From assembly GCA_965247485.1 (NCBI GenBank), contig OZ252017.1:837664-901663 (forward strand): DNA of 64,000 nucleotides, read 5' to 3'. This document shows, in pieces, positions 9,311 through 34,225 of the stretch. The translations under genes were made by a program, and so were the position numbers. The DNA is from Dehalococcoidia bacterium (lineage in GTDB: Bacteria > Chloroflexota > Dehalococcoidia > DSTF01 > WHTK01). How positions within the stretch are numbered: the first letter of the stretch is position 1; every line of letters begins with the position of its first letter. Under the pieces are notes generated by a model that saw only the letters and a program-made list of their open reading frames with translations, was not told the origin of the DNA and did no database searches.

Positions 9311-10564
9311 TCATTCGTACCTAAGCGCCTCAATCGGCCGCAGCTTTGCTGCCGGGCGAGCCGGATAAAGCCCAAAGAAAACCCCGATTCCGGCAGCGAC
9401 AGCAAAAGCCATCAGTACCGATGTCCACGACACCACCGTCTGCACGTCCTCTCCCAACCCCGCGATGTCGCGGCCGTCAATAAAGGTCGCTGCCCCCACG
9501 CCGACCAAAATTCCGGCGACTCCACCGATCACCGTCACAGTGAGTGCCTCGGTTAGAAACTGCATCAAGATGTCGCTTTCGCGAGCGCCGACCGCCTTGC
9601 GTATGCCGATCTCCCGCGTCCGCTCGGTCACCGAGACCAGCATGATGTTCATGATCCCGATGCCTCCCACCAGCAGCGAAATACCAGCGATGCTGCCCAG
9701 CAGTACCGTCATCGTCTCGCTGACCTCATTCACCGCCGCCGCGATGTCCTCCTGGCTTTCGATAATCACGTCGGACTCGACAACTTGATGCTGGTCTCGG
9801 AGCAAAAGATCGATCGAGGTCTTCGCCTCGTCGATCTCGCCTTTGTCGGCAACCTGAACCGTGATTTGACTGACAATCGAAGAGTTGCCGGCCCCACGAA
9901 TCGACTGGATTTGGTTTTGGACCGTGGAAATTGGCAGGAAAATCTGGTCGTCGAGGCTGTTTTCGGAGGTGCCCCCCTTGGCTTCAAGGACGCCAACAAC
10001 CCGGACAGTGATCACCAGCCGGCCCAAACCCAGGCGAATCTGCTCCCCGAGAGGACTGGTATCAGGGAATAACTGCTCAGCCACGCTGCTGCCAAGAACC
10101 GCAACCCTGCTGCGCTGGTCGACGTCGGAAACGGATATGAAGGCACCCTCTGCCACTTGCAGCTCATAAGCTTCTGCATAGTCAGCCGTTACCCCAGCGG
10201 CCCTAGTAAAGGTATTCTGGCCGCCACCGCTGACCTGGAGGGGAATCCGGACCTCAGGCGCCACAACCACGGCCTCCGGCAGAAAGGCCAGAATCGCCTC
10301 GGCATCCTCCATCGACAGCGTTTGAGCCGAGCCGGCACCACCCGAAACACCGGCCTGAGTGGATGACCCGGGCCGCACAAAAACCAGGTTGGAGCCCAGG
10401 CCCTCAATCCGGTCCGTAACCGCCTTTTGCGACCCTTGGCCAACCGCCATCAGAGCGATAACTGCCCCAGCTCCGATGACGATGCCCAGCATGGTCAGCA
10501 GAGCCCGCATCTTGTTGGCGATTAGCGCCTCGATCGCGACTTGAACGGCATCCAGGAAGCTCAT
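9311..10564 (-). CDS. MacB/FtsX-family ABC transporter permease
   Basis: MacB_PCD periplasmic domain plus FtsX C-terminal 4 TM; N-terminus [31 protein letters not shown] typical of MacB/LolC/E permeases. Confidence 0.85.
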
Positions 10565-11004
10565 TTGGACTCGGCCGCTTCGGCCACTTCTGCCAGAGCG
10601 CTAGCCGGACTGGCCAGCCGCTCCATTTCCTCCAGGGCCCACCGCGGCGATCCAACCCTGATGTCGTCAACGATCAGGCCGTCACGCATTTGAATAATGC
10701 GCCCGGCATGCTCAGCAATCTCCGCTTCGTGAGTCACATAGATAACTGTGATCCCACGATCCCGGTTAAGGGTTTGGAAAATCGACAATATTTCCAGGCT
10801 CGTCCGGCTGTCAAGATTGCCGGTCGGCTCATCGGCGAGGATTAGAGATGGACCGGTTATCAGGGCGCGGGCGATGGCGACACGTTGTTGCTCACCGCCG
10901 GAGAGCTCTGCCGGCTTGTGGAACAGGCGCTCGCCTAAACCAACCGCCTCGAGCGCCTCCGCCGCCAAGGGCAGGCGGTCACGTATTCCCCGGTAGAGGG
11001 CCAA
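10561..11004 (-). pseudogene. ABC ATPase (MacB/LolD type), C-terminal 147 codons only (Q-loop to H-loop); first codon TTG is the internal Leu of ...ELPLALYRG...
   Basis: [15 protein letters not shown] signature, [11 protein letters not shown]alker B, VTHE H-loop; lacks Walker A, which lies on the opposite strand immediately adjacent. Confidence 0.85.
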
Positions 11005-11333
11005 TGATAGAACTCACAGAACTGACCAAGGTTTACGAGATGGGAGAGCACCAGGTTGTGGCTCTGAACCGCGTAAATCTGAGTATCGAAGACGGGGAAT
11101 TTGTCGCGATCATCGGAGCATCCGGTTTGGGGAAATCGACACTGATGAACGTTCTGGGATGCTTGGATCAACCTACTTCTGGGAGTTATGAACTGGACGG
11201 CCTCGCCGTGGGTGAGCTTACCGAGGATGATCTGGCTCTGGTGCGCAATCAGGCAATTGGATTCGTCTTCCAAAGCTATAACCTGCTGCCGCGGATGCCG
11301 GCGGTGCGACAGGTCGAGCTGCCGTTGGCCTAA
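11004..11333 (+). pseudogene. ABC ATPase N-terminal 109 codons (Walker A) of the same gene, inverted relative to the rest of the operon
   Basis: [46 protein letters not shown]...QVELPLA then stop; continues seamlessly into the minus-strand fragment once the 320-bp segment is flipped. Confidence 0.85.
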
Positions 11334-17796: not shown

Positions 17797-17870
17797 GCGG
17801 CCAAGGTGTTGTGGTGGCATTCGTCCCTCCCACGGATGAGGCGGGGGTTCAATTCCCCCTGGCCGCTCCA
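17797..17870 (+). tRNA. tRNA, probably tRNA-Gly (anticodon CCC), 74 nt with encoded CCA; integration target of the downstream island
   Basis: Acceptor GCGGCCA/TGGCCGC, anticodon stem CGTCC/GGATG with loop CTCCCAC, T-arm GGGGG-TTCAATT-CCCCC, discriminator T, CCA; D-stem is weak (GTGT/GCAT), hence moderate confidence. Confidence 0.55.
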
Positions 17871-17871
17871 G
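17847..17871. repeat. attL core: 25-bp direct repeat GTTCAATTCCCCCTGGCCGCTCCAG (tRNA 3' end), identical copy at 30205-30229
   Basis: Exact 25/25 match between the two positions. Confidence 0.7.
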
Positions 17872-17897
17872 TCTTTTGCTTCGGTTTTGTATCTAAA

Positions 17898-17919
17898 AGA
17901 GGCCCGTGACAGGGCCTCT
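17898..17919 (-). terminator. perfect 8-bp stem-loop (AGAGGCCC-GTGACA-GGGCCTCT) between tRNA and integrase stop; possible integrase terminator (weak T-tract)
   Basis: Inverted repeat read directly; followed on minus strand by TTTAGAT. Confidence 0.3.
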
Positions 17920-17947
17920 CTAGGGTTCTGACCGCCTATCTGACCGC

Positions 17948-19075
17948 CTAACCGTGAAAAAGCTTATCCATGACGCTTACAGCTTGCTCCTGGGCGCCCT
18001 CGATCACGTGAGCGTAAATGCGCAATGTAGTCGAGATGTCGCTGTGGCCGAGCAGCTCCGAAACCACCTTGACCGGGACACCCTGAGAGAGCAGAACGGT
18101 CGCCGCGGTGTGTCTCAAATCGTGAAATCTCATTCGTGGTAGGCCTGCCTTGTCAAGTAACGGATGCAGCCCGCGGCTTAGGACGTGGCTATTGTCTAGG
18201 GGCTTGCCGAGCGCGTTTGTGAATGCGAGCCCGTATTCTTTCCACGCGGCGCCGGCAAGTTGGCGCTGACTGGGTTGATTAAGTCGATGGGTTTCTAGGG
18301 CCTCGCAAGCGGTTGCCGATAGCCAAACTGTGCGGCGTGACTTCTGAGTCTTCGGCTGGCCAAACAGAGGCTCGCCACCTCTCACTGTGGTCAACGTGCG
18401 GCTCACCTGAACCCGTTGGCGCTCGGTGTCTATGTCGCTCCACCGCAAAGCTTGGAGCTCGCCGAGTCGAAGACCTGACGTTAGTGCGAGGACAAAGAAC
18501 GCCTCAAGGGGATGACCTCTCGCGGCCTCGAGAAGCTGACGGGCATCCTCCGGGCCCAGGTGTCTTTGCTCGCCAGTGCTGCGCCGCGGCGGCGTGACGA
18601 GCGATGCGACATTTCGCCCAACAAGGCCCAGGCGCTCGGCATCACGCAAGGCGACATGGAGAACGCCATGACAATGCGCCACGGTGGTTGCACTGACTCG
18701 CCTTCCAATGGAGGCATAGGCTGCTCGCAAATCGGCCGGCTGAAGCTTGGAAAGGACGCGCCTTCCGAGTGCTGGCCCAAGATGTAGACGGCAAAGTGTG
18801 TTGTAGCGGCGCCACGTTTCCGGCCGTAAATCGCCCTGCTTGCCCTCTAGCCAGCTCGACAAGTACGCGCCAACCAAGAGTTTGTCACCTAGCAACGGGA
18901 GATTATCGTCCTGGCGCTTCTGGGCGTCCCGGAGCTTTTTGGAGACCTCAATGCGAGTCTTGCCGAATAGTGACCGGCGCCGCCGTTTTCCCGTGCTGGG
19001 CAGCGTTAGAGTGGCCTCCCAGCGGCCGTCTGCACGGAGACGGATGCTGCCTTCGCCCTTACCTCTCCGAGTCAT
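17948..19075 (-). CDS. int: tyrosine-type site-specific integrase
   Basis: C-terminal catalytic region HDLRHTAATVLLSQGVPVKVVSELLGHSDISTTLRIYAHV (R..H..R..Y); adjacent to tRNA and att repeat. Confidence 0.9.
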   Translation of the reverse strand: MTRRGKGEGSIRLRADGRWEATLTLPSTGKRRRRSLFGKTRIEVSKKLRDAQKRQDDNLPLLGDKLLVGAYLSSWLEGKQGDLRPETWRRYNTLCRLHLGPALGRRVLSKLQPADLRAAYASIGRRVSATTVAHCHGVLHVALRDAERLGLVGRNVASLVTPPRRSTGEQRHLGPEDARQLLEAARGHPLEAFFVLALTSGLRLGELQALRWSDIDTERQRVQVSRTLTTVRGGEPLFGQPKTQKSRRTVWLSATACEALETHRLNQPSQRQLAGAAWKEYGLAFTNALGKPLDNSHVLSRGLHPLLDKAGLPRMRFHDLRHTAATVLLSQGVPVKVVSELLGHSDISTTLRIYAHVIEGAQEQAVSVMDKLFHG

Positions 19076-19077
19076 CG

Positions 19078-19848
19078 TTAGCCTCCCTTTTTAATCATGG
19101 CAAGACGTGCCGCTATGTCATCTACATAGACCCCTCTAGGGGCCATTTTCCGGAGCCAGGAGTGAACAGGGCCCATTAACTCTGCGCCATATTTGATGTG
19201 TATAATCTCCGGATCTAGGATGTCTTCGTAAGTAAGTTGGGTGTCGGCTGTCTTTGGCTGGTAAGGGAAGGATTTCTCGCCAGACTGCGGCGGCCAAGTG
19301 CCACGAAACTCTTGGTGGACGCGAGCGTATGTTTCGTCGTCACGCCATAGAGCCCACCCCAAATATGCCTCCAAAGTCCGGCGGTCGGTCTCAGAAGCCC
19401 GCTCTGGCCTGCGCTCCCAAAACGCGAGGTCGACCGCCATCCACATACGGCTTTGGGGGCTGGCGTCGGGGGCAGCCTGCGTAACACGCCAAAACCAAAG
19501 CATGACCGGCAACAAAGGCCGTTTCAAACGATCTCCGATTGGGTTTAGTTCCCTTGCCAGATCGAAAAAGGCAGAGCTTGCTTCCCATGGTAAGGATCCG
19601 TCATCACTGAACGACTCGGGCCAGGTGACCACCTCTAGCCATCGACGTTCAGGGTTTGGTATCCGGGCCTCTCGGATGATGTCACTGACCGCACGAAGGC
19701 TGGGAGTCTTCTTACCCTTATACCCTTCCAGTCCCTCGGCGATCTTTGCTTGAATTAGCCGGCGCATAACCACGGCTCCCATCTGGCTATGGTTAACTGC
19801 GTTCACCTCAATCGTCCTACGGATTTGTGGATCGATTCTTGCTGGCAT
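19078..19848 (-). CDS. hypothetical protein, leftward gene next to int (position of a satellite/prophage master regulator)
   Basis: 256-aa ORF, Trp/Arg-rich, no recognisable motif. Confidence 0.45.
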   Translation of the reverse strand: MPARIDPQIRRTIEVNAVNHSQMGAVVMRRLIQAKIAEGLEGYKGKKTPSLRAVSDIIREARIPNPERRWLEVVTWPESFSDDGSLPWEASSAFFDLARELNPIGDRLKRPLLPVMLWFWRVTQAAPDASPQSRMWMAVDLAFWERRPERASETDRRTLEAYLGWALWRDDETYARVHQEFRGTWPPQSGEKSFPYQPKTADTQLTYEDILDPEIIHIKYGAELMGPVHSWLRKMAPRGVYVDDIAARLAMIKKGG

Positions 19849-19997
19849 TTGCCTACAAATCCTCCCTAGCTGCTATGTCCTTGGATTTTACTTCCATAGC
19901 ATTGCCATTCTGGCGCTTGACGACTGCCATACCAGGATTGATTCTACATCTCAGCAGAGGGCTGTCAAGGGATGGCAACCGCAAGAGGAGGCACCAA

Positions 19998-20192
19998 ATG
20001 GTAACCGAGACCACACGGCTAGCTTATCGAAGGATGGAAGCTGCAAAGGCCATCGATGTCAGCACCGACACCCTGGACAGATTGATTCAACGCGGAGAGA
20101 TCAAGTCTTTCAAGATCGGCGCCGCCATCTGCATCAGCGCTGACGAGCTCACACGTTTCATCAGAGAGCGCGAAGCGGCCGGCGGCGGCTAG
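19998..20192 (+). CDS. excisionase/AlpA-like helix-turn-helix DNA-binding protein
   Basis: AKAIDVSTDTLDRLIQRGEIKSFKIG HTH; RBS GGAGG upstream of ATG 19998; divergent from int. Confidence 0.55.
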   Translation: MVTETTRLAYRRMEAAKAIDVSTDTLDRLIQRGEIKSFKIGAAICISADELTRFIREREAAGGG

Positions 20193-20198
20193 CGCGAA

Positions 20199-20456
20199 GT
20201 GACGACCGCTGCCCATCATCCCAACTTCGTAGAACGCGACGAGATCTTGCGCCTACATCCAGGGCCGTGGAAAAAGAGCGGCGCCTGGCAGATGGCCTTC
20301 TGCCCAGTTCTAGCGCACGGCGACGGCCAGAAGCATGGCGGCAGGGGTGGCGAGTCCCTCGGGCTCTCAGACAAGGGCGTGCTCTCCTGCTTTGCTGGCT
20401 GTGCCTTTCGTGATGTCATGGCAGCGCTGCGGGCGGGTGATCAGGCGATTCGATGA
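20199..20456 (+). CDS. primase CHC2-type zinc-finger domain protein (separate small ORF preceding Toprim gene)
   Basis: CPVLAHGDGQKH...SCFAGC resembles the DnaG CHC2 zinc-binding motif; GTG start; stop overlaps next start. Confidence 0.5.
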   Translation: MTTAAHHPNFVERDEILRLHPGPWKKSGAWQMAFCPVLAHGDGQKHGGRGGESLGLSDKGVLSCFAGCAFRDVMAALRAGDQAIR

Positions 20457-22288
20457 CACCTTTGGGCGCTAAGCCGACGAACTGGTATGGCGAGACGATC
20501 TCGGGCTGGTATGGATATCAAGATGAAGCTGGCTCGGTTCGGTTTGACGTTGCGCGAACGCCCAGCAAAGAGTTTCCTGTCTATCACCCGGAAGGCACGA
20601 AATGGGCCAAGGGGTACGGCGGTCGGCGAATCCTCTACCGACTCCCCGAACTATTAGAGGCAGATCCAGCCGAGCCGGTTCTCTTATGCGAGGGCGAGAA
20701 GGACGCTGACCGGGCCCGGGCCGAAGGGTTCACCGCCACCACTACGCCAGGCGGCGCCTGGGCGGCTGATCATTGCGACCTCGGGCCGCTCGTTAATAGA
20801 ACTGTCGCGATCCTCCCAGACAACGACGAAGGGGGTGAAAACTATAGCTCTACGTTAACGGGCCTACTCGTTGGCAAGGCCGCCTCGATCAAGGTCATTG
20901 ACCTAACCGGCGTTCCGCCAAAAGGCGACGTTAGTGATTGGTTCGACGCCGGGCATGGCTCTGAGGAACTGAAGCAGTTGATCGGGCAACAAACGCCGGT
21001 AACACCCGTTTCTCCTCCGCAGCCTTCCACCTCGCAATCAACTACGTTGCTATTCCGGACGCCGCGACAAATCGCCCAACTCACACCCGAAACCCCAGAC
21101 GCGGTGGTCGCAGGCATCCTTGTAAGAGGCGCAATGACGGAAGTCAGCGCCAAAATCAAGACCGGCAAGACGACCTTCATGGGGCACTTAATCGCTGCTG
21201 TTCGCTCTGGGCACGACTTCTTAGGCTTGAAAACAAAACGCACAGCTTTTGTTGTGCTTACTGAGGAGCGAATTCAAACAATGCGAGCGGCCCTAGGGCG
21301 CGTCGGCCTTCTAGATGCGGACGATGTCCACATTCTCTCTCTGTACGACGCTGGCAAGCTCCCATGGCCCGACATAGTTGCCGAGGCGGAGAAATATGCC
21401 AAGGAGGTTGGCGCCGGCGTTATCGTCGTGGATACGCTTACTCGCTGGGCGCGCATTCCAAGCGATGATGAGAACAGCTCTGGCGCCGCGGCTGAAGCTA
21501 TTGAGCCCTTGGAGGCGGCAGCTGCTCATGGGTTCGCAATCCTTGTTATCCGTCACGACCGAAAAAGCGGAGGTGAGCTAGGAGACAGCGCTCGCGGGTC
21601 GTCAGCATTCGGTGGTGCTGCCGACATCATCCTCAACCTTCGCAGAGCGAATACCGAAGGCCATGAAAGTCGCCGGATATTACTAGGCGTCGGGCGCTTT
21701 GATGACGTTCCGTCTCAACTGACTATCGAGCTTCAAGCCGGCCGCTACGTAGTTCTTGGCGACACTGCCGCCATAGAACGTGACGAAACAAAGAGCCGAC
21801 TCCTGGACGTTTTGCCAGGTGTAAGCGGAGACCCTATTCGAGAGGATGATGTTCTTGCGCGGCTTGGCACTGAAGCAAAGAGATCAACTGTTCGGCGCGC
21901 CCTCAATGACCTGGTCGCGAATGCGTCCGTTGAACGAGTCTCCGGACTTGGGACGCGAGGCACTGCGAAAGGCTATCGCTTAGGCTCCCGTTACTCTACT
22001 GACCAGCCTATAGAGATGGACCCTGGTCAGAAGACTAACTCTCACGTTCCTGAAAGTAACGTGGATTACTTTAGTGACCAGCCCCATACCCCTGGTCAGA
22101 AACATAGTCCCCTACTCAACGGAAACTCTACTGACCAGCCCCCATTTCCTATAGGTGGTCAGTTGGGTAAGAACGACCTTTGCACAGAGCTTGGGTGTGA
22201 ACGTCCCGGTACTCACGCCAATCCAACCGATGGTGAGCTCGTTTGTCTGTATCACTTCACGCGGATGACCGCTGAGGTTGCGTCGTGA
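20453..22288 (+). CDS. Toprim-domain DNA primase fused to RecA-like (AAA_25/RepA-type) helicase domain; repeat-rich C-terminal tail
   Basis: Toprim motifs LCEGEKDADRA and ILPDNDEGG; Walker A KTGKTT, Walker B VIVVDTL; C-terminal STDQP/PGQK repeats and a Cys-rich tail. Confidence 0.8.
   Translation: MTPLGAKPTNWYGETISGWYGYQDEAGSVRFDVARTPSKEFPVYHPEGTKWAKGYGGRRILYRLPELLEADPAEPVLLCEGEKDADRARAEGFTATTTPGGAWAADHCDLGPLVNRTVAILPDNDEGGENYSSTLTGLLVGKAASIKVIDLTGVPPKGDVSDWFDAGHGSEELKQLIGQQTPVTPVSPPQPSTSQSTTLLFRTPRQIAQLTPETPDAVVAGILVRGAMTEVSAKIKTGKTTFMGHLIAAVRSGHDFLGLKTKRTAFVVLTEERIQTMRAALGRVGLLDADDVHILSLYDAGKLPWPDIVAEAEKYAKEVGAGVIVVDTLTRWARIPSDDENSSGAAAEAIEPLEAAAAHGFAILVIRHDRKSGGELGDSARGSSAFGGAADIILNLRRANTEGHESRRILLGVGRFDDVPSQLTIELQAGRYVVLGDTAAIERDETKSRLLDVLPGVSGDPIREDDVLARLGTEAKRSTVRRALNDLVANASVERVSGLGTRGTAKGYRLGSRYSTDQPIEMDPGQKTNSHVPESNVDYFSDQPHTPGQKHSPLLNGNSTDQPPFPIGGQLGKNDLCTELGCERPGTHANPTDGELVCLYHFTRMTAEVAS
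21994..22165. repeat. three imperfect copies of palindromic unit CT(A/G)(C/T)TGACCAGCC-N7-14-CCTGGTCAGAA inside the primase-helicase gene 3' end (candidate replication-origin iterons)
   Basis: CTGACCAG / CTGGTCAG inverted arms at 21998-22030, 22075-22100, 22131-22162. Confidence 0.5.
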
Positions 22289-22938
22289 ACCGCCAGGAGA
22301 GGCGCCGGGCGGGCAAAGCCGACAAGGGCCTCACAGAGAAGCTACGCGCTGAGCTACCCGGTATTCTCGGCTGGGCTGTGCGTGGGTGCCTTGAATGGCA
22401 ACGGCGTGGCCTCGAGCCGCCGGCCTCTATACAAGCAGCGACCGACGACTATCGCACTGAGAGCGATCCTTTAGCGGGCTTCCTCGCTGAGTACTGCGTT
22501 CTTGGTGACGGGCTGGCATCACCAGCCAACCCGCTGTACAAGGCCTACGCCCGGTGGGCGGCTGATCAAGGTTATCGCGACCGCGAATTGCTCACGAGCA
22601 CGGCATTTGGGCGGCTGGCGGGGAGTCGTTTCGACAGTGGCCGGAGCCGCGCCGGGAAGGTTTATTACGGCCTAGGTCTCTTAAATGCACAGCAAAGTGA
22701 TCTAAAGGTGACGGGTTTCACGTCTGACGACCCGTCACTTCCACTAAACCTTCCTATGTATTCACCTACGCGAGATTTGTTAGAAAACTCGTCACAACCC
22801 GTCACACCCGTCACAGAGGAAAACGAGCTCTGCACTCAGGCCAATTGCGACCTTCCGGGCACCCACGCCGAGCCAACTACTGGCGAACTTGTTTGCCTTG
22901 CCCACTTCCAGAAATTGGCTTCAGAGGTGACGTCGTGA
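22285..22938 (+). CDS. phage/plasmid primase P4-family C-terminal domain protein (D5/PriCT-like)
   Basis: Conserved pattern GILGWAVRGCLEWQRRGL...TDDYRTESDPLAGFLAEYC; ends with same Cys-rich tail as preceding gene. Confidence 0.6.
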   Translation: MNRQERRRAGKADKGLTEKLRAELPGILGWAVRGCLEWQRRGLEPPASIQAATDDYRTESDPLAGFLAEYCVLGDGLASPANPLYKAYARWAADQGYRDRELLTSTAFGRLAGSRFDSGRSRAGKVYYGLGLLNAQQSDLKVTGFTSDDPSLPLNLPMYSPTRDLLENSSQPVTPVTEENELCTQANCDLPGTHAEPTTGELVCLAHFQKLASEVTS

Positions 22939-23068
22939 ACCGTGAAAATCGGTGGCTCATGATGAGGGGGAAGGGGCCCTCGGATACTTCTCAGATATGG
23001 AAACGAACACCGCTACCCTACCACTCCTCGCACGCGGTCAGGTTTCAACCAAGGGGGGTTCAGCCTTA

Positions 23069-23545
23069 ATGGGTTCTCGCGGACCTTCGCCAAAGCCCAC
23101 AGCACTAAAGGCCTTGCATGGCACCGCTCGTCGCGACCGGAGCAATCCAAGCGAGCCTCAGCCGCAGGTCACCGCCGTTTCTTGTCCCGCGTTCCTAGAC
23201 TCCGCGGCGAAGGCAGAGTGGCGCCGGCTCATCCCGCACCTGGTCAAGTTGAAACTCATGAGCGATCTAGACCGGGGCCTCCTCGCTGCCTATTGCGCGG
23301 CCTGGAGTCGCTGGCGGAAGGCGGAGCTTGCGATCCAGAAGTTCGGTGAGGTCTTAGCGACGCCAAGCGGGTATATGCAGAAGAACCCTCACGTGACGAT
23401 TGCCAACGAATCAATCAGAACGCTCGAGAAACTGGCGGGGCACTTCGGTCTGTCGCCATCCACAAGGACGCGGGTTAGCGCCACACCAGAGGAGCAGGAG
23501 GACGATCCATTCGATGAATGGGAGCAGCGAAGGAGGTCGAGGTGA
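23069..23545 (+). CDS. terS: phage terminase small subunit, P27 family
   Basis: GPSPKPTALKALHGT...AKAEWRRLIPHLVKLKLMSDLDRGLLAAYCAAWSRW...NPHVTIANESIRTLEKLAGHFGLSPSTRTR matches the P27 TerS pattern; ATG 23069 preferred. Confidence 0.8.
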   Translation: MGSRGPSPKPTALKALHGTARRDRSNPSEPQPQVTAVSCPAFLDSAAKAEWRRLIPHLVKLKLMSDLDRGLLAAYCAAWSRWRKAELAIQKFGEVLATPSGYMQKNPHVTIANESIRTLEKLAGHFGLSPSTRTRVSATPEEQEDDPFDEWEQRRRSR

Positions 23546-23937
23546 TAAGGGCCATGATCGAACCGCTAACCGAAACCCCACCGCCGCCGGACTTCATCGG
23601 TAACCGAGATGCGGAGTGGGTGCGCGACTGGCACACACTCGCCGGAAAGCTCGTCGCATCGCGCACCTTGGCCGAGCTGGACCTAGTAATGCTCTGCCTG
23701 CTTATCGACGCTTGGCAGATCTACAGCCGCGGCCTTCGAGACATCGCCCGTTATCCAGAGCCAGAAGGCCTAAGGGAATCAATCGAAGAATGGCGGCTTC
23801 ACGCTCGCCAAGCCGCCAGTGAGTTTTTTCTTATACCTGAATCGCGAATCAATTTAGGAATCGTGGCCGACGCCGGCGGAGACAGCGAGTTATCGGCCCT
23901 TTTTCGAGAGAACAACGACGAATCAATCACGCAATAG
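23518..23937 (+). CDS. hypothetical protein with weak TerS-like helical pattern (second small-terminase-like/packaging-interference candidate)
   Basis: DAEWVRDWHTLAGKLVASRTLAELDLVMLCLLIDAWQIY mirrors the P27 A..EW..L...L..L.D...L...AW spacing. Confidence 0.35.
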   Translation: MGAAKEVEVIRAMIEPLTETPPPPDFIGNRDAEWVRDWHTLAGKLVASRTLAELDLVMLCLLIDAWQIYSRGLRDIARYPEPEGLRESIEEWRLHARQAASEFFLIPESRINLGIVADAGGDSELSALFRENNDESITQ

Positions 23938-24689
23938 CGGGCCGTAGGCCCGCCCAGTCAAGGGAGGAAAGACGATGGCAGCCACAGCGATTCAGGAAAT
24001 TAGCAAAAACGCGAAAGTCGACTACTGGCAGAACGATCATCCCTACGAGGTGGTTCGCATCGAGCCGTGAATTCCTGGACGAAATTGACTCATGATTATT
24101 CCTCGAGCATTTGAGGGCACATGGCTTGAGCCAGAGGAGCCTGCCTGGCGACCTGGAGACCCTTTCCCTGCGCCGTGGATACGTGAGGAATCGGAGAGAT
24201 GGTTAAGAAACTAATCAGCGAGAGCACCTCGCCAAGTTGAAGATGGTGACTGTTTTTGGTACGCCGAAAGCCCATAACTGGACAACTTACGCTCTGTTTA
24301 GAGTGAGTCTACAGCTGTGAATCGCCCGCCGCTTAGTAGCGTAGGCTTGGAAGGCAGATCGCACCGTGCGCTGTAGCAGCGTATCTAGGACCGTGAGCGA
24401 GAGCTGTCCAGTTATGGTGTGAAAGTTCTTGGGATTTTCTCCTACGCGATGCGGCGCCGTCCGGCGACCATGCTAAGAAGCCATGCAGTCAACGAAACCC
24501 TTGCCGACCCGCAGTTTGTCCGCGCCAATCCCAGGCTATCAATGCCTTAATCTCCACGGTCGGGACCTAAACTGTCCAAATTCTTACGGCCCTCGACCTG
24601 AACAGCGATGGCGCTGAGATTGACGAAGAGGACCGCCAATAGGCCACAGCAAGTCAGATTCGTGGTCGTGTATGAGGCGGGAAAGGATG

Positions 24690-24810
24690 GTTTGCCGGAA
24701 GGAGGCTCGAACCCCCAAGGCCTCGCGGGCGGCGGATTTTAAGTCCGCAGACGATAGGTTACTGACGTGTACTACCGTCCGCCCACGATGCGATTTGGTA
24801 GGCTTTCGGC
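24690..24810 (-). pseudogene. tRNA-Leu(TAA)-like remnant with ~30-nt insertion in the D-arm region (pseudo-tRNA)
   Basis: On minus strand: anticodon arm GCGGA-CTTAAAA-TCCGC, long variable arm, T-arm GGGGG-TTCGAGC-CTCCT, acceptor GCCGAAA/TTCCGGC with one mismatch; total about 120 nt, too long for an intact tRNA. Confidence 0.3.
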
Positions 24811-24981
24811 CGCCTACGTCCTGCGTCGGTTGAGGTTGTCCGTCCCGGTTGCTGTCTAATTTGCTGTCATTGCTCAATGCCGATGGCCCGCTACCGCTTG
24901 CCACCCACTTCATTCGGAGCGTCGCAAGTAGGTCGTTGTCGTTGCGACATTGCCTAGTATCAGCTGATCTCGTTCAGAAAG

Positions 24982-26034
24982 ATGCCGTACACGACAATGA
25001 TGAGAAGGCGGGGACGATACGGAGTCCCAATGCAGACGTACGGGTCGATCATCCCAGGCGGTCCAACCCTGGCTCGTCTCCTCCCAGAGGGAGCGCAGGA
25101 AGGCAGGGAGGAGCCACGACTATCACGTGAGGCGAAGGCGCGCCTCAGGGCTGTTGAGTGGCACAAGGATCACGGCGAGAAGGTGAGTCTGACGGCAAGA
25201 CGCTTTGGACGCAGCCGCTCAACCCTTTACTAGTGGCTAGAGTGCTACCGGCTCCGGGGTCCGCGGGGTCTGGAAGACCGCAGCCATAGGCCACACCAGG
25301 TCCGCAAGCCGACTTGGAGCCTAGAGTTCGAAGCAGCGGTGCTACGCCTGCGCCAAGACAATCCCGTCTGGGGCAAAGACAAGCTACAGCCGATCCTCAG
25401 ACGCGAAGGGGTCACTATCTCGGTCTCGATTGTGGGCCGCATCCTTAGCCGGCTCAGACGCCAAGGCAAACTGGGGCCTGCGAGTCTGAAGGACCCTTGC
25501 ATCGTCTCTCGGCCTCAGGTGCGGCCCTATGCCGTGCGTGAGCCCAAAGACTACGTCGTCAAGGCGCCGGGAGATCTGGTTCGGTGGACAGCGCCGACGT
25601 GCGCTGGACCGGTATTACCTGGCGCGTGATATTGTCAGCCGCTGGGACGTCTTGGGTGTCTACGGCCGCGCTACCGCCGGCACGGCGCGCGACTTCCTCG
25701 ATACGGTCATCGAGCGTATGCCGGGTCCGGTGAAGGCGATCCAGGTGGACGGTGGCTCTGAGTTCAGGGCCGAGTTTGAGGCCGCCTGTGAGCAGAAGGG
25801 GCTGCGGCTTTTTGTGCTGCCACCATGCTCCCCCAGGCTCAACGGCTGCGTGGAACGAGCCCAGCGCACCCACAAAGAGGAGTTTACCAGTTGGTTGACC
25901 CACCCGACTCGCTCAGCCAACTGAGAACCCAGCTGCTCCAACAGGAGCAGCGTTACAATACTTACCGGCCCCATCAGGCCCTTGGCCATCTAACGCCGCA
26001 AGAGTGGCTGCTAGCATTCACCGAGAGGAAGTAA
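24982..26034 (+). mobile_element. degraded IS481-family insertion sequence (transposase ORF split into at least 4 frames)
   Basis: HTH piece (24982-25233), LRLRQDNPVWGKDKLQPILRREG piece, DDE/rve core (DGGSEFRAEF...LPPCSPRLNGCVERAQRTHKEEF) and C-terminal YNTYRPHQALGHLTPQEWL piece in different frames. Confidence 0.7.
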
Positions 26035-26102
26035 GTGTCCGGCATCTACTGGACGAGTACAAGCACTTGCGCCTTCCAAACCGTCGCCCTACACTAATTG
26101 CA

Positions 26103-26129
26103 TTAGCACTCGCTTTAGCCGAGTGCTAA
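26103..26129. promoter_or_regulatory. CIRCE operator (HrcA binding site), perfect consensus TTAGCACTC-N9-GAGTGCTAA
   Basis: TTAGCACTC (26103-26111), 9-nt spacer, GAGTGCTAA (26121-26129); 40 bp upstream of groES. Confidence 0.85.
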
Positions 26130-26170
26130 ACTACGATAAAGCCTGAATTTATCCCCACGAGGAGGTCAGA

Positions 26171-26467
26171 ATAGCTTCGAGACTAATCCCTCTTGCCGAC
26201 AAGCTTGTTCTTAGGCCGATTGTCCAGGAGGAAGTCCTCTCCAGCGGAATCGTCATTCCAGACACCGCCAAAGAAAAGCCTAACCAGAGCGAAATCATCG
26301 CCGTGGGTCCAGGAAAGCGCGACGAGGACGGCAAAGTGATCATCCCGGAGGTCGTGATTGGTGACCGAGTGCTTTACGCCAAGTACACCGGCCAAGAGAT
26401 CAAGGTAGAAAATGAAGAGCTAATCGTTCTAGCGGAGAAAGATATCCTCTGCAAGGTCGAAGTCTAA
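26171..26467 (+). CDS. groES: co-chaperonin GroES (10 kDa chaperonin); apparent ATA start codon 5 nt after GGAGG
   Basis: Translation (I)ASRLIPLADKLVLRPIVQEE...GIVIPDTAKEKPNQSEIIAVGPGKRDEDGKVIIPEVVIGDRVLYAKYTGQEIKVENEELIVLAEKDILCKVEV; not in ORF track because no ATG/GTG/TTG start. Confidence 0.75.
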   Translation: MASRLIPLADKLVLRPIVQEEVLSSGIVIPDTAKEKPNQSEIIAVGPGKRDEDGKVIIPEVVIGDRVLYAKYTGQEIKVENEELIVLAEKDILCKVEV

Positions 26468-26491
26468 GTCCGCCCGCGTTAGGAGGGTCTA

Positions 26492-26551
26492 TTGGCAAAA
26501 CAAATCGTTTTTGATGAAGAGGCGCGTCGCTCACCGAAGGGTGAATCGTGA
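26492..26551 (+). pseudogene. groEL: groEL 5' remnant: 19 codons (L/M)AKQIVFDEEARRS... then unrelated sequence and stop
   Basis: AKQIVFDEEARR is the conserved GroEL N-terminus; RBS AGGAGGG upstream; TTG start; reading frame terminates at 26549-26551. Confidence 0.6.
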
Positions 26552-26769
26552 GTAATCACACAGGCCTTCAGTACGAAGGATACATTCAAGAAACAGGGTT
26601 CGGGATAAGTGAACTAGTACCGAGCGCCAACGAAACCATGGAAGACATTGTGTCGGCTTTAAAGGCTGCTGCAGAACGCCTCAAGCTTCACGTCCTTATT
26701 TGGGTGGATGAAGACAGGATTCTGCTTGCGTGTCCGCCTCCTGCCTTTGCCGGCATGCAGAGAAGTTAG
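26548..26769 (+). CDS. hypothetical small protein (73 aa), lower-GC cargo
   Basis: ORF only; non-repetitive composition. Confidence 0.25.
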   Translation: MSNHTGLQYEGYIQETGFGISELVPSANETMEDIVSALKAAAERLKLHVLIWVDEDRILLACPPPAFAGMQRS

Positions 26770-27728
26770 TAATCCTCAACGCGCCACCACACCTAAAGCC
26801 GAAAGGAGAAGAGGGCCTCCACGAGATGGCCCGCAGGATACGTTTTCGAAGCTGACGATTCGCGAGGCGTTCTGCGGACCTCTAGGAACCGGCAGGTTTT
26901 GCAACGATTTGGAAAATGAGGCTGGTTGCACTAAGACTTCGGCGCCAGACGACTTTCTTGCCTTGGCTCGATGCAGCAAGGGATGTCCGTCTCTTAATCG
27001 CTCGTTGAGAATCATCCTCGCTCAGGTCGATGGCTCCCCAATCGCCAACTTTAAGGGAACCTAAATATTCCAAGTACTCAGTGAGATCCTGGAGGTTAGT
27101 ATGCCTTCGCGTAAGATGACTAACTTCTGCATCAGACAGCTTCCTAAAATTTGGCATTGAAGTATCCCTCCAAGCTAATTCGTGGGTGCTCCACAGGAGC
27201 CCTATTGGATGCTAATCATAGGCCAAATTAGACGTCAAGCGTATACTCATTTTACTCCTGCTCTTTATTTCGACTATATTGTTATCGTAAGGGAATATGC
27301 ATTAGGCAGCAAGTGGGAAGCTCTCGCCGTGACAATGCATGATGCCCGCTCGTGGCACGAGACGCATAACGCCTAATGGCCCCTCCAGATTCCAAGTCAG
27401 GACCGAAACTGAAACAGCCGGTGGGGATCCAAGAGATCGGTCGGCGGCTGGCATTTGGGCCCCCGGGATACTTCCTAGGCTCGCTATCTGAGTGCGGGTG
27501 TTGGCCCGTAAAGAACATTCGCTAGCATCTGACCGCCACTGGTTTCTTCGAACCTCGTCAGACCGTTTGACTTGGAATCTTGAACCAACCTCTCAAACCA
27601 TCCAAGATATTGTCAGCAGAGTACGAGTCTTAGTCTTCGCTAACTGCATTCGCCAATGAGCTAAAAGAGAGATTCTTTGGTAGACTAATTCGAACCGTAT
27701 ATAGCCAATTGCAAAGACCGCTACCTAT

Positions 27729-28517
27729 TTGAGCAAGTTGAACTATATGCAGCAGACACGGAGAGTATTCGCTATGGAGCACCTTCTACCTTCTGAAGAC
27801 ACAGCCCGAGATCGACTATGTGTAGCGCTCGACTTGGCGGGAAGAGCTGACATTTCTCGGTGTATTTCAGAACTCGCAGATTTAGTCGGTTATTTTAAGG
27901 TAAATTCTGCATTTGCTCTGTACGGTCGTAGCCTGATCGAAGAAATATCCGAAGCTGGGGCCAAAGTTTTTCTCGATTTGAAACTCCATGACATTCCACA
28001 TGCTGTATCTGGATATGCAGATGCAGTCACTCGATTGGGAGTCGATTTAGTAACGGTTCACATCGCTGGCGGTACCCACATGCTTAAAGAACTTGTCAGA
28101 ACAGCAGATGACACAGCTAAAGAACTTGGAGTCAAGCGACCATTATTCATCGGTGTCACAGTCCTGACTAGTGTTGACAAGAGTATTCTCAACTCTGAGA
28201 TGAACATCAGGGGCGATGTTCGTCAGGAGGTGGCAAGAAGAGCCTTCTTAGCCGCGAAATCAGGACTCGATGGCATCGTCTGCTCTGCCGAAGACTTACA
28301 TTTCGTGAAGGGTGACCTACCCGAGGACTTCTTCTATGTAACACCGGGGATACGTGGTCTCAATGAGGAATCTCAAGACCATAAACGAGTTCTCTCCTAC
28401 GGGGAATCGGTTCAGGCAGGAGCAAGCTTGCTAGTTGTGGGCCGGGCGATCGTATCTGCTCCAGCCAGACGCGATGCGGCTTCCAAAATCCTGAGTGAAA
28501 TGACAGTGGAGGTCTGA
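27729..28517 (+). CDS. orotidine 5'-phosphate decarboxylase (PyrF type 1)-family protein, island cargo
   Basis: Hallmark motifs VALD...KVFLDLKLHDIPHAV, VTVH, VTVLTS, CSAED, VTPGIR, VVGRAI; lower GC than flanking chromosome. Confidence 0.8.
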   Translation: MSKLNYMQQTRRVFAMEHLLPSEDTARDRLCVALDLAGRADISRCISELADLVGYFKVNSAFALYGRSLIEEISEAGAKVFLDLKLHDIPHAVSGYADAVTRLGVDLVTVHIAGGTHMLKELVRTADDTAKELGVKRPLFIGVTVLTSVDKSILNSEMNIRGDVRQEVARRAFLAAKSGLDGIVCSAEDLHFVKGDLPEDFFYVTPGIRGLNEESQDHKRVLSYGESVQAGASLLVVGRAIVSAPARRDAASKILSEMTVEV

Positions 28518-28518
28518 G

Positions 28519-29097
28519 TTGGACTTCTCTCGCAAACCAGTCATTGGCTGCATCCACCTTCTGCCGACTCCAGGCTCTCCAGAATACGATGGTGACATGG
28601 CAAGGGTGTCCAATCTTGCACTCGAGGAAGCCGCCATTCTCAGAAGGTGCGGCGTCGACGCGCTCATTGTTGAGAACTTCCGGGACGGACCCTTCTTTCC
28701 AGAAGCTGTTCCAGTAGAGACGGTCGCCGCTATTTCAGGTGTCGCCCGCGAGATCGTGATGACAGGGGACGTACCCGTAGGTATAGCCGTTCTTCGCAAT
28801 GACGCCGAAGCCGCGATAGCGATAGCAACGGCAGTAGGCGCACAGTTCGTTCGTATAAACGTGCATATAGGCGCCGTGCTCGCGGAGCAAGGAATCGTTC
28901 AGGGCCGAAGTTTCGCGAGTATGCGATTACGGGCTAATCTACGCTCAAATGTTGCGATTTGGGCTGATGCGCGGGTCAAGCACTCCTTCCCTTTCGTATA
29001 TTCGAGTATCTCACAGGAGATTCGTGATCTAAACGGAAGAGCAGACGCAATTCAGCCCTGCGGTCCGCACTGGGCGCCTCTAAAGGCATCGCACTGA
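28519..29097 (+). CDS. BtpA/SgcQ-family (TIM-barrel) protein, C-terminally truncated relative to family (192 aa)
   Basis: PVIGCIHLLPTPGSPEY N-terminal motif and ADARVKH typical of BtpA; family members are usually about 260 aa; possible frameshift near 29065. Confidence 0.5.
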   Translation: MDFSRKPVIGCIHLLPTPGSPEYDGDMARVSNLALEEAAILRRCGVDALIVENFRDGPFFPEAVPVETVAAISGVAREIVMTGDVPVGIAVLRNDAEAAIAIATAVGAQFVRINVHIGAVLAEQGIVQGRSFASMRLRANLRSNVAIWADARVKHSFPFVYSSISQEIRDLNGRADAIQPCGPHWAPLKASH

Positions 29098-29279
29098 ATG
29101 AAGACGCCGGCATTGCGTTAAAGGCACTGCTGGAGGCCCCCTTAGCTCGTCAGGCCCTTGTACGCCGCCACGTCGAACTCCTCCACAATCGGGGAAGAAT
29201 GGCTGCCGGCAGTCCTGATTCTTTTAGAGGCTGAAGAGAAGCAGGCAGAGGCGGAGCGGCTGGACGCAGAGGGCTCGCT

Positions 29280-29585
29280 ATGACTGCTAGTCAACCCACC
29301 GAGACTTTCATCGTTCACGTACAGGACACTGAGACTATGCAGCTCCTCCAGTACCAGGTCGACTTCGGCGCGGCTACCGCAATTCGGGAATTATGCCGGG
29401 CATTGCAGGGTGTAGGCCGGGCTCAAGCCTCCGATGTGGGTGAGGCTCCCGTGACCACTCAGGAGCTTCTCCAGCTCCACGTTGAGGCTCTCCTGACGGT
29501 CCCCGAAGAATGGCTGGAATCGGCGCTGATCCAACTGGAGTCATGGGCCAAGATCGCCGGCGACTACCAGCCAGACACGGGCTAA
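29280..29585 (+). CDS. hypothetical acidic protein (101 aa)
   Basis: ORF with decent codon periodicity; no motif. Confidence 0.35.
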   Translation: MTASQPTETFIVHVQDTETMQLLQYQVDFGAATAIRELCRALQGVGRAQASDVGEAPVTTQELLQLHVEALLTVPEEWLESALIQLESWAKIAGDYQPDTG

Positions 29586-29647
29586 GGCCAGGCGTATAGT
29601 CGAAGGAATGACCGCGGGCGAAAACAAGACAGGCCTAATGAGACAAA

Positions 29648-29962
29648 ATGGACACGCCAAAGGAGTTCCCAGAAGAGCTGCTGCCATATCTGGAGCAGTT
29701 GGCGTCTGAGGACCGAGAGCGCCTGCTCGCAGAATTCGAGCGCGACATTCACGTAGAAGAGGCAAGGGCTCTAACGGGCGACAAGCTGGCGAACGAACTA
29801 GAGCGGCTGATAGCTATGGTGAAACTGCTCTCGCTCTTGAAGAAGCAAGAGGGCCCGGAAGCGCTCCGGTTGTTTAGTGATCGCGTCGGACTTTTACCGG
29901 GGCAGCTTGAGGCTCGGCTTAATGACCTCGACGACATTGAGCATATATGGGATGCGCAATAG
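29648..29962 (+). CDS. hypothetical acidic helical protein (104 aa)
   Basis: Glu/Leu-rich, predicted helical; no motif. Confidence 0.35.
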   Translation: MDTPKEFPEELLPYLEQLASEDRERLLAEFERDIHVEEARALTGDKLANELERLIAMVKLLSLLKKQEGPEALRLFSDRVGLLPGQLEARLNDLDDIEHIWDAQ

Positions 29963-30204
29963 GGCCCCCAGGGGACCTCGAAAACCTTAGAGCAAACGGC
30001 CTTGGAACCGCTGGCGAACCACTTTCCGGCTATTTATGAATTCCAAATGTTTTTAGAAAAGGTTTGCAGTGCCCACTTTCGCCACCTTTTGACCGCCTAT
30101 CTGACCGCCAGACGCAGCGGAACTATGCGGTCTCTAGCGGCCTAGATGGTAGAATCTGAATCTAGATGCGGCCCTTAGCGGTTTTGAGCGGAGCCTTAGA
30201 GGAA

Positions 30205-30229
30205 GTTCAATTCCCCCTGGCCGCTCCAG
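30205..30229. repeat. attR core: second copy of 25-bp direct repeat GTTCAATTCCCCCTGGCCGCTCCAG
   Basis: Exact match to 17847-17871. Confidence 0.7.
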
Positions 30230-30335
30230 ATTTTGCCCAACCGCGCTGATCTTAGGCACGGTCTAGCCATTCCAACATCGCGTCGGATCTTGGCGCGGCC
30301 TGGCTCTACCAGCCAGCGAGGACGCGCAACCGATC

Positions 30336-32516: not shown

Positions 32517-32690
32517 TAAGCTCTCACAAGCACCCCTTTTACTGGGGTCTGGGTGTCCCCAGCTTTGGAAGTCCCCCAGTTCTAAAGCCAGCCCCGGCTT
32601 TCAAAGCCAACGCCCCGCAACCCCCTTTAGCGGGGTCTGGGGTGTCCCCAGCTTTAGAAGTCAATAGGTTCGCCAAAGCCACTGCTTTTC
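32517..32690. repeat. about 1.5 copies of the GGGGTGTCCCCA / CTTTCAAAGCCAGCGCCCCG repeat family (same family as 33915-34225)
   Basis: Shared strings ...ctttagcggggtctggggtgtccccagctttagaag... Confidence 0.6.
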
Positions 32691-33914: not shown

Positions 33915-34225
33915 CTTCAAAGCCAGCGCCCCGTTACCCCCTTTACCGGGGTCTGGGGTGTCCCCCAACTTTCAAAGTCCGGTTTGGGGTGTCCCCAGTT
34001 CTAAAGCCAGCCCCCAGGTTTCAAAGCCAGCGCCCCGTTATCCCCTTTGGCGGGGTTTGGGGTGTCCCCAACCTTCAAAGTCCAGTTTGGGGTGTCCCCG
34101 GCTTTAGAAGCCTCCCCAATTTTCAAAGCCAGCGCCCTTTACCCCCTTTAGCGGGGTTTGGGGTGTCCCCAACTTTCAAAGCGTGTCCCCCCCCCAACTT
34201 TCAAAATCCCCCCGGGCATCAACAT
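33915..34225. repeat. tandem array: 3 copies of an about 105-bp unit (each with two GGGGTGTCCCC(A)ACTTTCAAAG sub-repeats) immediately upstream of the oxidoreductase gene
   Basis: Units at about 33915-34020, 34020-34125, 34125-34225; roughly 85-90 percent identity by eye. Confidence 0.7.

Follow-up and report, generated by a model that had tools for sequence, protein, structure and literature searches.

A short heat-shock module lies on the plus strand of a 64-kb stretch of DNA (hereafter the window, meaning the whole stretch analysed) from a Dehalococcoidia bacterium. Its operator is a CIRCE element (HrcA operator) at 26103-26129 that reads TTAGCACTC-GCTTTAGCC-GAGTGCTAA, with perfect 9-bp arms on either side of the 9-nt spacer GCTTTAGCC. 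A first-pass annotation had called an exact CIRCE with a 9-nt spacer at this position, and the call holds: the site has 0 mismatches to TTAGCACTC-N9-GAGTGCTAA and is the sole match in the window at 3 mismatches or fewer, with 0.03 matches expected by chance (shuffling, 3 mismatches allowed). A putative groESL promoter, TTGCGC-N17-TACACT (26067-26095, plus strand), is intact and ends 7 nt before CIRCE. It was found by phylogenetic footprinting, being below the threshold of a generic sigma-70 scan, which missed it; the TTGCGC and TACACT hexamers, their spacing and the fixed 7-nt gap to CIRCE are conserved across Dehalococcoidia loci, and the spacers vary. CIRCE is placed between this conserved promoter and groES, the latter 41 nt downstream, and the same layout occurs in relatives, where identical CIRCE arms stand ahead of groES. 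In its operator, in the 7 nt from the conserved -10, in the 41 nt from CIRCE to groES and in the 24 nt from groES to groEL, the module is like the CIRCE/HrcA groESL operons of the Bacillus-type regulon in their Dehalococcoidia version.

The groES frame (26171-26467, plus strand) comprises 98 amino acids and a stop. It had been read as an intact GroES frame, and alignment bears this out: the product matches the Pfam Cpn10 model PF00166 at 2.7e-27 and 95 bits (cut-off 21) over profile positions 2-93 of 93, and also matches NCBIfam co-chaperone GroES models. The frame opens on ATA, positioned as claimed 5 nt after the GGAGG of a GAGGAGG sequence (26159-26165); no in-frame ATG, GTG or TTG occurs from the upstream stop at 26144-26146 until 26303, the first one. 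Beyond groES, a groEL 5' remnant (26492-26551, plus strand) begins with TTG, encodes (M)AKQIVFDEEARRSPKGES* and stops at a TGA (26549-26551). The annotation was right that a groEL N-terminus is cut short there, with the remnant running to that TGA, but the native portion is longer than the 13 codons it had recognized: native sequence extends to 26539, i.e., 16 codons (48 nt), and is followed by 3 unrelated codons and the TGA. The donor groEL described below reads ...ARRSLKSGVD at this point, so the S and K of the remnant are native and P15 is a substitution. No other groEL fragment was found elsewhere in the 64-kb window by tblastn. That groEL is destroyed, as had been asserted, is therefore confirmed, and groES has no intact co-transcribed groEL as partner; a groEL merely split by the low-GC patch to its right, with the remainder nearby, is ruled out by the same search.

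Directly to the left of the promoter lies a degenerate IS481-family insertion sequence (IS; 24965-26061, plus strand), delimited by inverted repeats of ~28 bp located by inverted-repeat alignment (IRL 24965-24992, IRR 26035-26061), and 96.8% identical to an intact IS in a donor-type locus (L001) of another Dehalococcoidia lineage. Its transposase (25030-26034, plus strand) is a pseudogene that tblastn splits across three frames; CAG has become TAG at 25231, single base pairs are missing after 25582 and 25882, and 19 bp are missing after 25619. The 341-aa transposase of L001 has NF033577 (IS481) as its best family (4.4e-60), its 203.6 bits falling short of the curated cut-off of 224. No matching 4-6 bp target-site duplication was found on comparing 24960-24964 with either 26062-26066 or 26540-26545, and at the donor locus AGCAC/CGCAC is the only candidate, and a possible one, for such a duplication.

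To the right of the break at 26539, the remnant abuts an unrelated, lower-GC patch (26540-29097, plus strand). Its first gene is an orphan open reading frame (ORF; 26548-26769, plus strand) whose GTG overlaps the groEL remnant stop; it has 0 homologues among 1.84 billion representative proteins and no Pfam, NCBIfam or PHROG match. An ORF on the minus strand (26882-27157) is next, followed on the plus strand by a divergent OMP-decarboxylase-like (pyrF-like) gene (27729-28517) and a C-terminally truncated btpA (28519-29097) that lacks the C-terminal third and ends at about residue 178 of ~255. The description of this downstream DNA as lower in GC and unrelated was borne out as to the second point, 26540-30087 having no similarity to any fetched locus by blastn or tblastx; as to the first, the drop is only modest, from 0.51 in the block to 0.46-0.53 downstream, which is below the rest of the window. 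The OMP-decarboxylase-like protein has no relative above 59% identity outside the window genome, and among its closest relatives (52-59%) are Streptomyces, Micromonospora and Paraburkholderia proteins with an orotidine-5'-phosphate decarboxylase annotation. A recent capture of the pyrF-like gene from relatives is ruled out, the next best homologue being 59% identical. This cargo end is pieced together from foreign fragments, of which groEL and btpA are truncated.

All of these features lie in an integrative, phage-satellite-like island of 12.2 kb (17884-30087, unstranded). The 3' end of a tRNA-Gly(CCC) gene (17797-17870, plus strand; ARAGORN, Rfam tRNA 50 bits) carries the left att direct repeat (17847-17876), and a copy of this 3' end (the last 24-30 nt) forms the right att direct repeat (30205-30234, plus strand); Rfam found nothing beyond tRNA in the window. 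Domain assignments with Pfam, NCBIfam and PHROGs identified a tyrosine integrase (17948-19075, minus strand), a primase-helicase (20453-22288; TOPRIM/AAA_25, 611 aa), a primase C-terminal fragment (22285-22938) and a P27-type small terminase (22952-23545) with a second, weaker small terminase behind it, and found no capsid, other virion structural or large-terminase genes in the island. The island genes are absent from all seven same-lineage contigs that span the tRNA-Gly site (L045-L051); in the three that were compared with it by alignment to the window (L046, L048 and L051), unrelated filler (926 bp in L046) replaces 17884-30087, and the tRNA repeats still bracket it. The att repeats, the gene content and the absence from conspecific contigs place the module inside a strain-specific island, in agreement with the integrative setting that had been proposed for it. 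As in PICI-like satellites and tRNA islands with cargo by attR, a tyrosine integrase stands beside the tRNA, a replication module with primase-helicase and one or more small terminases (TerS) are present, the element measures 12 kb (within ~10-15 kb) between att direct repeats, virion genes including capsid genes are lacking, and presence is variable. Unlike theirs, the island cargo consists of truncated foreign fragments and not of intact accessory genes. The carrier appears to be a PICI-like satellite in Chloroflexota.

Some further features of the island and its site were recorded. In L046 (8823-9865), two copies of the tRNA-Gly 3' end bracket the 926-bp filler, which has a 62-aa ORF, and a 117-bp right arm as in the window (30088-30204). 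Because the island-free L046, L048 and L051 keep two repeat copies, the tRNA-Gly site seems to have been used before, or an element to have been replaced. Inside each island end is a 23-nt direct repeat, TT(C/T)TGACCGCCTATCTGACCGCC (17926-17948 and 30087-30109), which contains a doubled TGACCGCC and is a candidate arm-type integrase binding site. A second primase-helicase (P0140) is encoded in the window genome outside the window; it is 84% identical to the island protein overall and ~95% in the core, with 430 aa and a shorter N-terminus, and the next relative anywhere is just 49% identical. P0140 suggests a second, related island elsewhere in the window genome. No relatives of the island primase were found in IMG/VR. 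The similarity of the ORF at 22285-22938 is confined to the C-terminal end of phage DNA primases, and its Cys-rich tail (LCT..C..PGTHA.P..GELVC..HF) recurs at the end of the 611-aa primase-helicase; duplication or splitting of a replication-gene module may explain it.

The origin of the module was traced through the IS. Window positions 24964-26539 correspond to L001 8773-10369 as one contiguous block, with 96.7% identity over 1597 nt. Homology begins at the left terminus of the IS, continues unbroken through the IS, promoter, CIRCE, groES and 48 nt of groEL, and ends at 26539. The block, ~1.6 kb and collinear with the donor chromosome, comprises the whole IS and 477 bp of its right flank (26062-26539, plus strand), the latter holding the groESL promoter, CIRCE, groES and the first 16 groEL codons. 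That the captured unit is the IS with its right flank indicates that the IS was involved in the capture; the earlier proposal of a promoter-proximal groESL piece taken up with the help of IS481 is upheld by this collinearity. Donor-type loci were found in four assemblies (L001-L005, with L005, GenBank CBDCMQ010000006.1, on the same 72,554-bp contig as L003). By gene calls, L001 and L003 have a 341-aa IS481-family transposase directly upstream of CIRCE, groES and a 548-aa groEL, and L002 has a 238-aa transposase call, groES and a 551-aa groEL; in L005 the IS and flank arrangement is seen by alignment only, and L004, a 992-bp contig, contains the last 45 bp of the IS, groES, the start of groEL and nothing more.

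Sequence comparison further showed that the block is foreign to the species that now carries it. The closest GroES in a search of 5.8 billion proteins (P0001, 96% identity) is encoded on the chromosome of another Dehalococcoidia MAG lineage. The 477-bp flank is 96.6% identical to L001-L005, as against 85.1% to the groESL of its own species (P0005-type, L035-L044). Three window proteins occur exactly in a 3,064,122-bp NCBI/ENA contig, in which the pyrF-like protein also has a 100% identical match. The window genome has 99.5% amino acid identity to P0005-type genomes and 92.4% to the L001 genome over shared proteins. In the P0005 lineage, groESL occupies a syntenic tsaD-DUF2851-HTH locus with no IS upstream. 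These identities (96.6% L001-type, 85.1% own-species) lead to the conclusion that the block originated in an L001-like species; they rule out the groESL of the present host as the source, and the label of a host-type module that the first-pass annotation had given it has to be withdrawn. Neither the junction of the groEL remnant with the cargo nor that of the IS with the promoter was found in JGI metagenome contigs, and a plasmid collection gave distant groES matches only.

The donor-type loci have peculiarities of their own. In L001 (9887-9900), just 5 bp separate the right end of the IS from the -35 in the promoter of the essential groESL operon, and that operon is intact in 4/4 assemblies; compared with the sister lineage, ~65 bp of upstream intergenic DNA is apparently missing at the insertion site. 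The 9-nt CIRCE spacers of the island (GCTTTAGCC, 26112-26120) and of L001 (GGCTAAAGC, 9942-9950) are exact reverse complements. The spacer GGCTAAAGC is found in 5/5 donor-type loci (four assemblies) and the outgroup spacer is GCTTCAGTC, so that the island orientation is the ancestral one; the outgroup and donor spacers taken together point to a flip of the hairpin loop in the donor chromosome after copying, as a small palindrome-mediated inversion.

Differences between the window and L001 in the flank were polarised with the P0005 lineage as outgroup. There are 12 point differences in the 477 bp; 11 are polarisable, and all 11 are derived in the window and none in L001, the twelfth (26062, beside the IS end) being of ambiguous polarity. 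Derived changes in the leader are at 26098, 26137 and 26141. In groES, classed here as a pseudogene, they are ATG to ATA (26173), K4R (26181), G40S (26288) and A62V (26355), and on the groEL side they are a Shine-Dalgarno (SD) change from GGAGCG to GGAGGG (26486), ATG to TTG (26492), a synonymous CAG to CAA (26503) and L15P (26535). Of the two origins that had been offered for the ATA, a mutated ATG is supported by the outgroup as a derived G to A change, and a deliberate rare start is less likely, M1 being present in 112 of 113 full-length GroES homologues; G40 is present in 113 of 113. Along the window branch, groES gained 4 non-synonymous changes (a small sample, n=4) and no synonymous ones, as compared to 39.5 synonymous and 6.5 non-synonymous changes between functional orthologues (L001 vs L035; dN/dS 0.05). 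The probability that four of four changes would be non-synonymous is ~0.0004 at a dN/dS of 0.05 and ~0.34 under neutrality. Of the properties expected of a functional GroES, then, the frame retains the full-length Cpn10 domain and lacks a usable start, invariant residues with purifying selection, and a groEL partner.

Divergence on the window branch is 2.3% in the flank, whereas synonymous divergence between the two species (pS) is 0.57, which makes the capture recent compared with the separation of the species. Within the block, the promoter and CIRCE, with both arms unchanged, are the only intact parts. At 2.3% divergence, the absence of any change in the 18 CIRCE arm positions has a probability of ~0.65 by chance, and as this outcome is expected by chance 65% of the time, intact arms are no evidence of selection; the intactness of promoter and CIRCE is what chance predicts, and selection would give the same. 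To judge by its substitutions, the whole block is behaving like unconstrained DNA. With all genes of the block mutationally dead or dying, groES is, as read from its sequence, a mutational pseudogene relic in an IS-associated captured fragment, a hitchhiker and not part of a working chaperone module.

Three other explanations were weighed. The first-pass annotation had held groES to be perhaps retained and functionally suggestive, and the satellite might indeed keep a working co-chaperonin, with GroES made from a rare AUA behind a strong GGAGG and tuning host GroEL for capsid assembly in the manner of T4 gp31. The open 98-codon frame that still scores as Cpn10 and the ideal SD spacing would fit this, as would AUA initiation in E. 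coli at ~1-2% of AUG (range 0.02-3% across assays; 10.1101/063800) and the existence of phage co-chaperonins (PMC6318259, PMC5649160), a GroES homologue being present in 32 of 50,697 phage records. However, the loss of the start is derived and unique, G40S falls on the invariant glycine, all four changes are non-synonymous and on the island branch only, and the linked transposase and groEL are wrecked in a block that behaves as neutral DNA. The known phage co-chaperonins (T4 gp31, RB49 CocO and marine-virus GroES; PMC6318259, PMC5649160) are likewise Cpn10-fold genes on virus-related mobile elements, but they are intact, expressed and phage-diverged, whereas the island groES, at 96% identity to a cellular gene, shows no phage-style specialisation, has been inactivated by mutation and was brought in as flanking DNA of an IS; the 32 phage homologues are all below 60% identity to it. 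A working co-chaperonin is thus very unlikely, although with an open frame and a strong SD there is some slight prospect of trace AUA-initiated translation. A second explanation, also very improbable, would make use of the regulatory DNA alone: the promoter and CIRCE would have been co-opted, either as a heat/HrcA-responsive promoter, a switch that would sense heat or proteotoxic stress, for the cargo (ORF 26548, the pyrF-like gene and the truncated btpA) or as an HrcA-titrating decoy during island replication. If it were true, a decoy active at satellite replication would derepress the host chaperonins on which capsid assembly depends. In its favor, neither the -35 and -10 nor the arms, which are identical to those of the host operator, have changed, as against 11 substitutions in the remainder of the 477 bp; no terminator-like site occurs from 26129 to 27800, and the GTG of ORF 26548 overlaps the groEL remnant stop. 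Against this stand the chance expectation for intact arms (P ~0.65) and the cargo itself, since ORF 26548 is without homologue or family match, the ORF beyond it is convergent, the pyrF-like gene has a promoter-like site of its own (27251-27280) and lies at a distance of 1.2 kb, and btpA is truncated; the suggestion that the CIRCE promoter now drives downstream cargo is accordingly not favored.

The remaining explanation, and an extremely improbable one, is that a long-read metagenome assembler spliced IS-groESL reads of a co-occurring sister species into the contig. The window does come from a metagenome-assembled contig (3.06 Mb), the donor-type organism is in the same series of ENA assemblies, and the assembly may be noisy in places, as a 335-bp inversion in another part of the window might suggest. 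A chimera, however, would be ~100% identical to the donor and would run on into groEL, whereas the block differs from the donor by 31 substitutions, one 19-bp deletion and two 1-bp deletions and retains the ancestral orientation of the CIRCE spacer, which is lost in 5/5 donor-type loci (four assemblies). The inverted segment itself (10998-11332) lies in an ABC-transporter ATPase gene, is inverted relative to the conspecific L046 and is flanked by a 10-nt imperfect inverted repeat only; in L048 a 978-bp deletion begins at that breakpoint as well (10997/10998). Either a genuine hotspot of rearrangement or an error of long-read assembly could account for the inversion. Intergenic repeats of ~72-89 nt (core CCCC..GGGGTCTGGGTGTCCCCAGCTTTGGAAGTC; 32532-32662 and 33916-34181) also vary in copy number among conspecific genomes, with extra tandem copies in L051.

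The reading preferred here, with a probability of roughly 0.85, is that 24965-26539 is a dead, IS-linked piece of the groESL locus of another, sister Dehalococcoidia species that travels as a passenger with a phage-satellite-like island integrated at tRNA-Gly. What the sequences show is a donor lineage whose intact CIRCE-groES-groEL operon has an IS481-family element 5 bp ahead of its -35, an island that contains the same IS and exactly 477 bp of right flank as one collinear block, and mutations that have accrued since copying in the island copy alone, namely the transposase nonsense codon and three frameshifting deletions, the loss of the groES start and of the invariant glycine, and further substitutions. 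Uptake of the block probably took place while the island lived in a donor-like host. Since the block is embedded in a mobile island, acquisition in an L001-like host and a later move of the island into the present species is the simplest reading. The likely route would be homologous recombination of an island copy of the IS with its chromosomal counterpart and then an illegitimate excision of the kind that gives rise to F-primes or specialised transducing phages; a different illegitimate, non-homologous joint at 26539 is a possible alternative. The present host, by comparison with conspecific genomes, probably keeps its own intact groESL elsewhere, and host HrcA would be expected to bind the island CIRCE still, the host's own operator having identical arms.

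IS elements mobilise adjacent chromosomal DNA in several known ways, among them ISEcp1-type one-ended transposition, composite transposons and IS-driven F-prime formation. The island block is like these in that an IS and its contiguous flank moved together and in that one block boundary coincides exactly with the IS terminus. Unlike ISEcp1, the island IS is of the IS481 family, and one-ended (ISEcp1-like) transposition was rejected as unsupported because no IR-like sequence that might act as a surrogate right end is present at the groEL breakpoint (the best local alignment of IRR with the donor breakpoint region scores 11, below the random mean of 12.3) and no target-site duplication is found at the IS or at the IS with flank. 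Compared with CIRCE/HrcA groESL operons, the island copy differs in being mobile and of foreign-species origin, with a groES that has no start codon and a groEL cut after 16 codons. A literature search found no precedent for a satellite-borne GroES or a CIRCE pseudogene.

In summary, what looked like an auxiliary chaperone on a satellite is a pseudogene relic, and as such it should not be counted as a satellite-encoded GroES. The case is one more instance, well documented here and not surprising, of host DNA hitchhiking by way of an IS into a mobile island and decaying there. Its value lies in providing a clean record, and one that can be dated, of DNA movement between two Dehalococcoidia species, in which an IS appears to have dragged 477 bp of an essential operon into a host-switching island, where the copy apparently drifted neutrally by 2.3% since capture while the donor copy stayed fixed. 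The carrier, as a PICI-like satellite in Chloroflexota, may outweigh the groES fragment in interest.
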